Positions 19 to 60,813 of a stretch of DNA of 64,000 bases are shown here, in pieces. Within the stretch, counting starts at the first letter, position 1. Every line of letters starts with the position of its first letter. Under the pieces are notes generated by a model, which was given only the letters and a program-made list of their open reading frames with translations, was not told where the DNA came from and searched no databases. Made by a program: the position numbers and the translations under genes. The DNA is from a virus, in the IMG/VR virus record IMGVR_UViG_3300046804_003463, positions 1 through 64,000 of that record, one strand, 5' to 3'.

Positions 19-100
19 TGGTGGGTTGAGTAGGGATCGAACCTACTTGCCGAAGCCACGGGTTTACAGCCCGCTGCCCTACCATTAGAGCATTCAACCC
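19..100 (-). tRNA. tRNA-Tyr(GUA)
   Basis: Reverse complement folds as a cloverleaf; anticodon arm GCGGG-CTGTAAA-CCCGT, long variable arm, TTCGA T-loop, encoded CCA. Confidence 0.95.
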
Positions 101-108
101 AATAACAC

Positions 109-184
109 TGGCAGGGAGTATAGGACTCGAACCTATGCATGTCGGAATCAAAATCCGATGCCTTACCAACTTGGCGAACTCCCA
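109..184 (-). tRNA. tRNA-Gln(UUG)
   Basis: Anticodon arm TCGGA-TTTTGAT-TCCGA, GTTCGAGTC T-arm, CCA end; U1:U72 mismatch. Confidence 0.93.
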
Positions 185-192
185 ACAATTAC

Positions 193-267
193 TGGCTGCT
201 CAGGTAGGGATCGAACCTACGACACACGGATTAACAGTCCGCTGATCTACCGCTGATCTACTGAGCA
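193..267 (-). tRNA. tRNA-Asn(GUU)
   Basis: Anticodon arm GCGGA-CTGTTAA-TCCGT, CCA end. Confidence 0.95.
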
Positions 268-274
268 ACAAACT

Positions 275-352
275 TGGCGACATGTACGGGATTCGAACCC
301 GTGGTCTCCGCCGTGACAGGGCGGCGCATTAGGCCAACTATGCTAACATGCC
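275..352 (-). tRNA. tRNA-Asp(GUC)
   Basis: Anticodon arm CCGCC-CTGTCAC-GGCGG, CCA end. Confidence 0.95.
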
Positions 353-427
353 ATATTGAAGCACACTGGGACTCCATTGGAGTTAATTATCTTTGGAACA
401 ACCCTCAGAACCAATGTGCTTCAATAT
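353..427 (-). ncRNA. Putative structured small RNA between tRNA-Lys and tRNA-Asp
   Basis: 17-bp terminal inverted repeat ATATTGAAGCACATTGG / CCAGTGTGCTTCAATAT with internal hairpin ACTCC-AAT-GGAGT; fills the whole inter-tRNA space. Confidence 0.55.
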
Positions 428-503
428 GGTAGGTGCGGTGGGATTCGAACCCACGACTCTCAGATTAAAAGTCTGATACTCTAACCAGCTGAGTTACACA
501 CCC
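427..503 (-). tRNA. tRNA-Lys(UUU)
   Basis: Anticodon arm TCAGA-CTTTTAA-TCTGA, CCA end. Confidence 0.95.
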
Positions 504-513
504 ATAATATAAT

Positions 514-588
514 TGGTACACCCAACCGGATTCGAACCGGTGTTACTGCCGTGAAAGGGCAATGTCCTGACCACTAGACGATGGGTGC
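514..588 (-). tRNA. tRNA-Glu(UUC)
   Basis: Anticodon arm TTGCC-CTTTCAC-GGCAG, CCA end. Confidence 0.95.
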
Positions 589-630: not shown

Positions 631-659
631 ATTATAGCGAAAATCCAAAATTCTGTCAA
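631..659 (-). promoter_or_regulatory. sigma70 promoter driving the Glu-to-Tyr tRNAs
   Basis: TTGACA-17 bp-TATAAT perfect consensus. Confidence 0.85.
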
Positions 660-695: not shown

Positions 696-772
696 TGGTC
701 TGAGTGGAGAGGATCGAACTCCCGACCTCCTGCTCCCAAAGCAGGCATTCTACCAGGCTGAACTACACTCAG
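696..772 (-). tRNA. tRNA-Pro(UGG)
   Basis: Anticodon arm CCTGC-TTTGGGA-GCAGG, CCA end. Confidence 0.95.
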
Positions 773-776
773 ATAT

Positions 777-815
777 AAAACAAAAAACCCCGAAGCCTTT
801 TGGATTTCGGGGTTT
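777..815 (-). terminator. Intrinsic terminator (attenuator) just upstream of tRNA-Pro
   Basis: Stem AAACCCCGAA/UUCGGGGUUU followed by UUUGUUUU. Confidence 0.8.
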
Positions 816-859
816 GTATACAGTTCGAACTAAACTACAATCTATACACAAACCTCCGA
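807..859 (-). promoter_or_regulatory. Antiterminator helix of tRNA-array attenuator
   Basis: UCGGAGGUUUGUGUAUAG (859-842) pairs with CUGUAUACAAACCCCGA (823-807): 17 bp with one bulge, sequestering the terminator 5' arm. Confidence 0.75.
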
Positions 860-937
860 TGCGGGCGCCCATGATCCATTATCGCTAAATGTGCGATACT
901 GTGGGCATTCCTTCGTAATGTGTATTAGTTTGTTCAT
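842..937 (-). CDS. Leader peptide MNKLIHITKECPQYRTFSDNGSWAPASEVCV (31 aa)
   Basis: ATG..TAG ORF not in the track; 31 distinct codons, all 20 amino acids; 3' end forms the antiterminator. Confidence 0.75.
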   Translation of the reverse strand: MNKLIHITKECPQYRTFSDNGSWAPASEVCV

Positions 938-941
938 AACT

Positions 942-1355
942 CTATATATCCCTCTGAACGCCTCTAAAAGTCAATTCACTAATAAAAAGTTTTCGTATGC
1001 GTTCACTAATGTGAATTTGAGTTTCAAGTATAGCCTCAATGTGATCATTTGTCAAGTCTTTGAGTGGTACAAAAGTCAAAGGCTGACGACCACCTTTACC
1101 ACGGGTACCCCATTTGAATACTTCACGAATTAGGGCATACGGTGCATCATCATACACCGACAATTCCTCATACGGTGCATCATCATGTACATTTCGGCGC
1201 AGATAATCTAGACCACCATCGACCATGTATTCTTTGCCATTTGCATCAACATAGGTCACATAGTCGTGGCGATGCCTAGATTCAAGAATCGTACCGTCAG
1301 GTGTACGAATACGATTCGCTACGATTCTTGCTTCACTCATCACTGTATACACCAA
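942..1355 (-). CDS. Conserved phage hypothetical protein
   Basis: SRHRHDY..VDGGLDYLRR motif recurrent in phage proteins; internal DDAPY duplication. Confidence 0.75.
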   Translation of the reverse strand: MVYTVMSEARIVANRIRTPDGTILESRHRHDYVTYVDANGKEYMVDGGLDYLRRNVHDDAPYEELSVYDDAPYALIREVFKWGTRGKGGRQPLTFVPLKDLTNDHIEAILETQIHISERIRKLFISELTFRGVQRDI

Positions 1356-12193: not shown

Positions 12194-12268
12194 TGGCACG
12201 GCTAGCAGGAATCGAACCCACATTCGTTCTTTAGAAGAGAACTGTATTATCCATTATACGATAGCCGC
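12194..12268 (-). tRNA. tRNA-Arg(UCU)
   Basis: Anticodon arm GTTCT-CTTCTAA-AGAAC, GTTCGATTC, CCA end. Confidence 0.92.
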
Positions 12269-17982: not shown

Positions 17983-18016
17983 GGGATCCCCCCGAAACAC
18001 CTATTTAGAACACAAA

Positions 18017-22221: not shown

Positions 22222-22258
22222 AGTCTGACCGCCGAAGACAATCAGACTTTATATTTAG
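22222..22258 (-). promoter_or_regulatory. Late-type promoter (CTAAATA) followed by a UUCG hairpin at the 5' end of the pstS transcript
   Basis: TACTAAATA then AGUCUGAUUGUC-UUCG-GCGGUCAGACU. Confidence 0.55.
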
Positions 22259-41178: not shown

Positions 41179-41192
41179 TATTTAGTATTTAG
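41179..41192 (-). promoter_or_regulatory. Tandem late-type promoter motifs
   Basis: CTAAATA twice upstream of the head-cargo operon. Confidence 0.6.
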
Positions 41193-47594: not shown

Positions 47595-47780
47595 TTATTT
47601 TATGTCTGTTGTTGCCCAGTTCGTTGTGTATTTTTTGTATTGTTGTTGACTCTGACCAGGCGTGTCATCAAGATATTTAGCAGTGAGTTCTGGTCTGCCC
47701 CACTCACCACCACCTGCTTTAGACACAAACTCTTGTCTGCTATCTTTATTTGCCTTGAGATAATCTTTGAATGTTTTCAT
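47595..47780 (-). CDS. Small CTS-like protein
   Basis: MKTFKDYLK; GEWG..Y..DTPGQ. Confidence 0.65.
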
Positions 47781-60426: not shown

Positions 60427-60813
60427 TCATTTCCTTAACCCACCCGTTAGGGTTTCTTCTTTTAGTTTTTGGATTTGTTCTTTGCTTAGTATTCGCAAAG
60501 CCTCACGTGCTTTGGAATCGGACAGGCCATAGACCAGTTTGACACATTCCAAATCATCGTTTTTTTCAGACTTAGCCCACTTCGCAAATGGTCTTTTCAT
60601 AGACCTGACAGTATTTAGTAAATAGTCAAATTGTAGCTTCTTTTCAAGGTAGTGCCTACTATTCATCTCGTTTGCAAAGGCTAGACAGTCTTTGTGCTGA
60701 GACAAGGCTCGGTTGACCAGAAAAGGATTGTAGTCCTTCTCAGTCAGGTCATCTACAATAAGTTGTTTCTTGGTTTGTAGAATAGCTGTGGCGTAGTCAA
60801 ATGGATTGCTCAT
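60427..60813 (-). CDS. Clamp loader small subunit (gp62)
   Basis: Y.PF.VNR.LS, ANEMN; synteny. Confidence 0.9.
   Translation of the reverse strand: MSNPFDYATAILQTKKQLIVDDLTEKDYNPFLVNRALSQHKDCLAFANEMNSRHYLEKKLQFDYLLNTVRSMKRPFAKWAKSEKNDDLECVKLVYGLSDSKAREALRILSKEQIQKLKEETLTGGLRK

Follow-up and report, generated by a model that had tools for sequence, protein, structure and literature searches.

How might a phage control the transcription of its tRNA genes? The question is raised by a locus of an uncultured lake-water phage, in the IMG/VR virus contig IMGVR_UViG_3300046804_003463 (77 kb), whose first 64 kb, hereafter the window, were analysed. At this locus, where everything lies on the minus strand, an array of tRNA genes is preceded by an intrinsic terminator, and the terminator is preceded by a short open reading frame (ORF) whose last codons are complementary to the terminator's 5′ arm. 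From the sequence, we consider that this element is probably a translation-coupled transcription attenuator of the leader-peptide type that heads the tRNA array. An earlier note, made from the letters of the window, had recognised here the geometry of trp/his-type attenuation, and this geometry proved to be real, conserved and partly covarying; the facts stated in that note were all borne out.

Competing helices and a conserved leader ORF

The leader RNA can be divided into four segments (Table 1), and three elements of an attenuator were found in it. First, an intrinsic terminator (helix 3:4), which the earlier note had placed a few nucleotides (nt) before tRNA-Pro, is located between the leader ORF and the tRNAs. 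Second, an antiterminator (helix 2:3) that shares a strand with the terminator can form at the ORF end. Third, a segment 1 near the start of the ORF can pair with segment 2. The antiterminator claimed previously, 859-842 with 823-807, does exist: it comprises 17 bp with one bulge and two G-U pairs, has a free energy of -24.1 kcal/mol and beats 2000 of 2000 shuffles of its 5′ strand.

These helices were followed through 43 related loci, 8 of them IMG/VR contigs found via the upstream gene and 35 found when metagenomes were scanned with a peptide profile; the metagenome contigs among these relatives are from freshwater. The leader element heads the tRNA array in every related locus. In 33 of the 34 family members, segment 2 is the stretch of the ORF that pairs best with segment 3, and the 2:3 duplex has -15.5 to -24.1 kcal/mol in 33 of the 34 distinct sequences, across four forms of segment 3 and in spite of a non-homologous intervening loop; the frameshifted L109 is the exception, its best stretch reaching -16.8. 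Two pairs of helix 2:3 covary. Helix 1:2 has 14 pairs, of which three are changed on both sides, and 88.9% of its cells are paired. Its compensations include A:U to G:C (L121/L122) and C:G to U:A (L099/L100), the latter being a synonymous Leu change paired with a change of the stop codon from TAG to TAA, and an A.A mismatch is mended by a change of one strand in L006 and of the opposite strand in L009 and its kin. The 10-bp, G+C-rich terminator stem is paired in 100% of cells, with two compensatory pairs (G:C to C:G, A:U or U:A), and the central hairpin in 99.5%, its loop varying and its stem remaining constant. Column p108 of segment 2 has a covarying partner in each conformer (A/U/A, G/U/A, A/U/G and G/C/G, with zero mismatches). 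The structure made up of helix 1:2, the inner hairpins and the terminator has a covariation score that beats 500 of 500 shuffles, with five pairs changed on both sides. When RNAalifold was applied to the family alignment, it returned the central hairpin, the terminator and a weak local hairpin only, and the two mutually exclusive long helices were not recovered.

Folding both alternatives showed the full RNA to be bistable, at -48.3 kcal/mol with the terminator and -47.4 with the antiterminator. In nascent RNA that lacks the 3′ arm of the terminator, the antiterminator is preferred (-41.3 against -30.6 kcal/mol for the helix 1:2 fold). The isolated helices have -9.7 (1:2), -24.7 (2:3) and -15.2 kcal/mol (3:4). 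The helix between codons 2-6 and the 3′ end of the ORF, together with its covariation, goes beyond the earlier note. Helix 1:2 begins 4 nt past the AUG, and the full-length minimum-free-energy fold (z = -3.85) holds it together with the terminator. Both features, and the covariation of the helix, would also suit a switch that governs translation or decay of the leader RNA rather than termination, for example through closure of the 5′ end by the AUG. We regard such a switch as quite unlikely, in that segment 3 is common to the terminator 5′ arm in every lineage, which is a hallmark of termination control, and tRNA-Pro has no other promoter; moreover, self-regulation of the peptide would have no obvious purpose, because the peptide is poorly conserved across lineages.

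Table 1. Features of the leader locus and the tRNA array (positions in the window)
Feature	Position	Strand	Remarks
Upstream gene, 137 residues	1355..942	-	DUF7695, match to PF24749; ends 4 nt ahead of the leader ORF
Sigma70-type promoter TTGACA-17-TATACT	1027..1055	-	Inside the DUF7695 gene, towards its 3′ end; distance to the leader ATG about 85 nt
ATATATA motif	943..949	-	5-nt spacer to the leader ATG
Leader ORF	842..937	-	31 codons plus TAG, previously unannotated; 20 amino acids, 31 distinct codons
Segment 1, codons 2-6	919..933	-	Pairs with segment 2 (helix 1:2)
Central hairpin UAUCGC-ACAUUUA-GCGAUA, codons 14-20	880..898	-	Inside the leader ORF
Segment 2 (pivot), last five codons, stop and 5-7 nt beyond	837..859	-	Pairs with segment 1 or segment 3
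Segment 3, antiterminator 3′ strand	806..823	-	Overlaps the terminator 5′ arm
Segment 4, terminator 3′ arm	785-794	-	Pairs with segment 3
Intrinsic terminator	777..815	-	Stem 815-806/794-785, 11-nt loop, U-tract 787-777
tRNA-Pro(UGG)	696..772	-	Starts 5 nt past the U-tract; no promoter of its own
Second sigma70-type promoter	631..659	-	Consensus match 12/12; would drive the rest of the array independently
tRNAs Glu, Lys, Asp, Asn, Gln, Tyr	19..588	-	Array runs to the contig end

Is the ORF itself maintained? The leader frame is open in all 43 related loci at a length of 29-31 codons. Its ATG is invariant, TAG or TAA stands at the same place across the family, and the stop codon always falls within the antiterminator strand. 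Indels measure 3 or 6 nt with a single exception, a 7-nt deletion in L109:973-1068, the sole family member with a frameshift; its frame is still open, and its TAG lies 9 nt further, still in segment 2. The ratio of non-synonymous to synonymous variation (pN/pS) in the leader frame is 0.27 among 9 sequences and 0.45 among 33, against 1.6-10.9 and 0.74-2.5, respectively, in the other two frames. The variable columns number 14, 16 and 20 at the three codon positions (entropy 10.1, 10.1 and 14.3), the third being the richest. Along the leader, pN/pS has a value of 0.15 in the core and rises to about 0.5 towards either end, so that the peptide itself appears to be weakly constrained, and the synonymous divergence of the leader is about half that of the neighbouring gene. 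We read this pattern as that of a frame that is probably translated, with a weakly constrained peptide and an RNA under extra constraint. The comparison thus supports the view that the ORF would be translated as a leader and that its length and the place of its stop codon count for more than the peptide it encodes.

A structured non-coding RNA, either a small RNA with its own promoter and terminator or an element for processing or stability of the tRNA precursor, would make the frame a by-product. The strong fold, the nucleotide conservation above that of the neighbouring gene, and the promoter-like motif 5 nt ahead of an ATG that has no Shine-Dalgarno sequence are all in keeping with it, and T4 makes stable small RNAs from its tRNA region. 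It is nonetheless hard to reconcile with a frame that stays open in the 43 loci and in three divergent lineages, with indels in threes, with variation that is richest at third positions, and with a pN/pS that is lowest in the leader frame. The covariance models of Rfam 15 matched only tRNAs in positions 1-2000 and nothing at 777-960 even at E <= 1. We therefore give this reading a low probability as well.

Slightly less improbable, but still unlikely, is an ordinary small phage gene for a protein of 31 residues, with the usual terminator of an operon end behind it; the hairpin would then be mRNA-stabilising or incidental, and the statistics would have arisen by chance. The ORF is indeed conserved with a coding signature, its YRTFSDNGSW core is invariant in the main family, terminators ahead of tRNA genes are common, and the promoter downstream makes regulated read-through dispensable for most tRNAs. 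However, the invariant core coincides with the hairpin stem, and one divergent leader (L247) alters the residues encoded by the loop. The peptide is almost unrelated in L247, G001 and L169, yet ORF length, stop position and three-way complementarity are kept. The covariation of helix 1:2, which extends to the stop codon, and the isoenergetic conformers likewise speak against a mere gene, and the leader peptide matched no protein family in Pfam or PHROG.

Residues 10-13 of the leader (window 910-899) vary as ECPQ, QCPE, PCQE, QAPE, QSPE or DCQE, with Gln always kept at position 10, 12 or 13. This swap is explained by none of the RNA pairings tested.

Amino-acid repertoire and divergent leaders

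The leader peptide of the window is MNKLIHITKECPQYRTFSDNGSWAPASEVCV*, in which no amino acid occurs more than three times or in a run. The tandem or enriched regulatory codons that characterise classical leader-peptide attenuators are absent from it. A count confirmed the observation in the earlier note that its 31 codons are all different and encode all 20 amino acids, and the chance of such non-repetition, put by hand at about 1e-4 and lower with biased usage, was computed as 8.6e-5 if codons are used uniformly and about 5e-7 under the codon usage of the phage itself. With that usage, 20 amino-acid types are expected in 31 codons with a chance of 3.6e-4. The 31-codon stretches of the window's real genes (n = 14,093) hold at most 29 distinct codons, and the next-longest ORF in the window with all codons distinct has 20. 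As had been stated, 18 amino-acid types are encoded by the first 23 leader codons, and each of the seven tRNAs has a codon among them; by inspection, the order of amino acids in the leader does not match the order of tRNAs in the array. Because the scan spans very many windows, the codon statistic alone may be a look-elsewhere effect, and it is therefore the comparative evidence that carries weight.

Within the family, 33 members hold 17-20 amino-acid types (all 20 in 19 members), against a chance mean of about 15. The retention of amino-acid types in the main family is above permutation (P = 0.009), a value of little weight that reflects few shared events, among them the permutations of E, C, P and Q at residues 10-13, and ignores kinship. 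The homologs have 22-31 distinct codons, and 3 of the 33 distinct homologs are fully non-redundant. High codon diversity seems to follow from the breadth of the amino-acid repertoire and from unbiased codon choice rather than to be a trait of its own.

Leaders outside the family were also found. A search with the pattern TTGTRTAG...TAYACAAAMCCC returned L247 and G001 plus unrelated coding matches; the third kind, the L169 type (L169, L256 and L265), is G+C-rich. These divergent leaders have 31-32 codons and share only 9-12 residues with the leader of the window. In G001, a complete genome of 170 kb, an array of 25 tRNAs for 20 amino acids is preceded by TATAAATA, 5 nt and an ATG. Its leader ORF of 32 codons has 20 amino-acid types and 29 distinct codons, and the ORF end GGGUUUUGUAUAG can pair without a mismatch with CUAUACAAAACCC, a stretch that overlaps the terminator 5′ arm. 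The L247 leader (31 codons, 19 types) keeps the central hairpin with an extended stem and a new loop; its segment 3 reads CCCUAG, a change that is matched in segment 2 (UAGGG) as well as in segment 4 (CUAGGG). In the L169 type, TTGACA-17-TATAAA is followed by an ATG placed where transcription is expected to begin, the 31-codon ORF encodes 19 or 20 types, and the three-way complementarity takes the form UGAGGUCC / GGACCUCA / UGGGGUCC, in which segments 2 and 4 follow a segment 3 of GGACCUC. In all four lineages, the antiterminator pairing beats shuffles (P <= 0.0055 each) and forms in the nascent fold.

The repertoire recurs in these leaders as well. With the shared residues held fixed, the chance of as many types is 0.018 for L247, 2.6e-4 for G001 and 0.06/0.006 for L169/L265; unconditioned, at least 19 types are expected with a probability of about 0.006, and 20 with about 4e-4. 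Among short ORFs of at least 25 codons behind the same start pattern (n = 8), 19-20 types occur only in the three leaders of 31-32 codons, and the others have 14-15. Degenerate searches aimed at further leaders of the G001 and L169 types yielded nothing beyond these records and identical copies of them. Among GenBank phages, a DNA search found tRNA-Pro look-alikes only, and tblastn with the leaders of the window and of G001 gave nothing credible; no cultured relative was present in the collections searched. Of what the earlier note had proposed to look for in related phages, short ORFs before the arrays and covarying helices were found, but conserved codon non-redundancy was not; a near-complete repertoire recurred despite divergence.

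In the L169 type, the order downstream of the leader is a small ORF, a promoter and then the tRNAs. In L255 (G009:1-2300) and L265, an ORF of 67 residues with its own Shine-Dalgarno sequence stands between the leader terminator and the array promoter. In this G+C-rich phage type, the switch would gate a protein gene first.

Promoters and a possible attenuation mechanism

Where would transcripts that carry the leader begin? The promoter inside the upstream gene, which the earlier note had not described, agrees with the consensus in 11 of its 12 positions. Of the 28 relatives that have the DUF7695 gene, 24 keep both hexamers unchanged at synonymous sites, and the next synonymous position varies; we judge it to be a selected promoter that would feed the leader. 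In L009 and L098-L100, the embedded hexamers are destroyed by synonymous changes only, the protein (A-I-L) being kept, and this subgroup has a promoter right past the terminator instead.

A second start may lie directly before the ATG. The late-like motif pointed out earlier at this place is present in the window and is invariant or nearly so in the family alignment, whatever the position of the upstream stop codon. The spacing is shared: L118-L122, L139 and G001 have TATAAATA + 5 nt + ATG, and the window has GATATATA + 5 nt + ATG. In a T4-type late promoter, TATAAATA is centred near -10 and transcription begins about 6 nt further on. In the L169 type, the same TATAAA is the -10 box of the sigma70-type promoter. 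The motif may thus be a T4-type late promoter that gives a near-leaderless RNA, or else an A/U-rich translation enhancer. The sequence CTAAATA has 6 matches in the window, all on the minus (coding) strand (18002-18008, 22252-22258, 41179-41192, 47674-47680 and 60612-60618); it is probably the usual late-promoter core of this phage and differs by 1-2 bases from the motif before the leader.

The genes downstream differ in their dependence on the leader. Because tRNA-Pro has no promoter of its own, it would depend on read-through of the terminator. In most related loci tRNA-Pro likewise follows the U-tract directly, and the L006/L009 type has a sigma70-type promoter there instead. The separate sigma70-type promoter that the earlier note had assigned to the other six tRNAs is present in the window (Table 1). 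The array is truncated here because the window begins at the contig end; in relatives it extends to 20-23 tRNAs and serves all 20 amino acids in L088 and L005 (23 at most). Past tRNA-Pro, the array begins with Glu, Lys, Asp, Asn, Gln and Tyr in the window and in L088, L005 and L283, and housekeeping-type tRNAs come later. We take the first six to be wobble-modified classes that are targets of known anticodon nucleases and tRNA-cleaving toxins. The spacer between tRNA-Lys and tRNA-Asp (353-427, minus strand) is long and closed by a hairpin; Rfam gives only a chance-level microRNA match to it (E 0.76). A second tRNA site in the window, tRNA-Arg at 12194-12268, has no comparable leader element.

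On this basis, we propose the following course of events. Transcripts carrying the 31-codon leader would start within the upstream gene, at the conserved promoter there, and perhaps at a late-type promoter directly before the ATG as well. Segment 2, formed by the last codons and the stop, could pair with segment 3, itself the 5′ arm of terminator 3:4. If a ribosome had reached the ORF end while the polymerase was making segments 3 and 4, segment 2 would be covered, the terminator would form and transcription would stop 5 nt before tRNA-Pro; when the ribosome footprint is placed at codons 25 to the stop, the terminator is what is left. If translation were absent, late or stalled within about the first 22 codons, the free segment 2 would capture segment 3 and the polymerase would enter the tRNAs. 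Since the nascent fold favours the antiterminator, the antiterminator should win when no ribosome is on segment 2, and the thermodynamics make read-through the likely default state, unlike in trp. The central hairpin is a possible pause hairpin for RNA polymerase.

Which signal might be sensed? Because the leader has no single-codon run and holds nearly every amino acid once, the signal would most likely be general decoding speed, or the loss of any one tRNA, rather than one amino acid. A bolder reading, to which we give clearly less than even weight, is that the leader is a pan-amino-acid tripwire: any tRNA that was uncharged, depleted or cut by an anticodon nuclease would stall the ribosome, and a complete replacement set of tRNAs would be transcribed. 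The near-complete repertoire would then itself be under selection, and this would account for its recurrence in leaders whose kinship can no longer be recognised. Sensing of this kind gains real support from the divergent leaders described above and is plausible; if it is true, counter-defence and tRNA homeostasis would be coupled to one sensor read by the ribosome.

Several points weigh against attenuation as proposed here. First, the proposal is drawn from sequence and folding. RNA-library contigs from two studies do bridge the terminator into tRNA-Pro (X6, 696-885; X7, 655-860), which fits read-through, but their depth is low and DNA carry-over is possible, so that they are a weak hint; stretches that lack RNA-contig cover, and low-share runs, carry no information. 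Second, single codons would make a far less sensitive detector than the tandem codons on which classical attenuators rely. Third, codon non-redundancy was rejected as a selected trait, the derived codons (n = 71) colliding with other leader codons at the chance rate (38 observed, 35.3 expected). Fourth, the strong promoter past tRNA-Pro, or right past the terminator in the L006/L009 type, would express most tRNAs regardless of the leader. Fifth, no Shine-Dalgarno sequence is conserved at the leader across the family, and initiation must therefore be leaderless, coupled or A/U-dependent. Sixth, the covariation of helix 2:3 is modest (17 of 500 shuffles reach its score in a MAFFT alignment in which one subgroup is mis-registered), and the segment 3 change seen in L007/L103 has its compensation in segment 4 but none in segment 2. 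Seventh, equilibrium folds with a masked ribosome footprint gave mixed outcomes for stalls in the middle of the ORF. Finally, tRNA arrays that have no leader were found in G002 (promoter only), G008, G013, G007 and 13 contigs with an identical tRNA-Pro; as many phage tRNA arrays are of this kind, the design is lineage-restricted.

Relation to known systems and significance

Leader-peptide attenuators are well known from enterobacteria, where they include trpL, hisL, leuL and pheL as well as the multivalent thrL, ilvGMEDA and ilvBN leaders. The phage element resembles them in its short ORF, in the exclusive pairings 1:2, 2:3 and 3:4, with 3:4 as the intrinsic terminator, and in its upstream promoter; the masking of segment 2 by a ribosome at the ORF end, leading to termination, is proposed here by the same logic. 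It differs from them in four respects. The phage leader has no run or enrichment of a codon and holds nearly every amino acid once or twice; tRNA genes would be controlled instead of biosynthetic genes; the ORF encloses further conserved hairpins and has no Shine-Dalgarno sequence; and helix 2:3 is far stronger than helix 1:2 (-24.7 against -9.7 kcal/mol), so that a lack of translation would probably cause read-through, not super-attenuation.

In attenuation of the pyrBI/pyrE type, the coupling of the leading ribosome to RNA polymerase decides termination. The phage leader would be similar in that its output is set by the distance between ribosome and polymerase and not by one amino acid. In pyrBI, however, a close ribosome blocks the terminator, and translation means read-through; in the phage leader, translation would mean termination, and nothing in it suggests nucleotide sensing. 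T-box riboswitches also choose between terminator and antiterminator according to tRNA charging, but they bind uncharged tRNA directly, have no ORF and control synthetase or amino-acid genes, and no Rfam match to them was found here.

Codon compensation is one explanation that has been given for phage tRNA arrays; a more recent one is escape from defences that cleave tRNAs. The latter role, phage tRNAs as a counter-defence against tRNA-cleaving systems (PMC10264068, PMC11555353, as far as the available portions of these sources go), provides a rationale for making tRNAs on demand when host tRNAs are cleaved. The available text of PMC10264068 mentions no attenuator, leader, terminator or promoter and does not address the regulation of phage tRNA transcription. 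The closest parallel in the literature, a functional one, is the trn operon of Anabaena sp. PCC 7120, a long array of tRNA genes that translational stress induces (PMC8421152) and that the ribbon-helix-helix (RHH) protein TrcR represses (PMC10272220). It is likewise a supplementary array that serves most amino acids and is switched on when translation is impaired, but its control is exerted by a repressor that binds DNA, and the array is cellular and carried by a plasmid rather than by a phage; attenuation, a leader and a terminator are not mentioned in the text of PMC8421152. Our literature searches found no publication on attenuation of tRNA genes, a type of control known for amino-acid genes.

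If the proposed reading is true, an attenuator before a complete array would place tRNA genes under feedback control by decoding speed. It would extend trp/his attenuation, the oldest paradigm of RNA regulation, to a new target and to a new sensing logic, in which every amino acid is read once instead of one amino acid many times. Such an element would be a compact natural sensor of general translation capacity, about 160 nt long, that could be of use in synthetic biology. The long-standing question of when phages make their tRNAs would thereby become directly testable.

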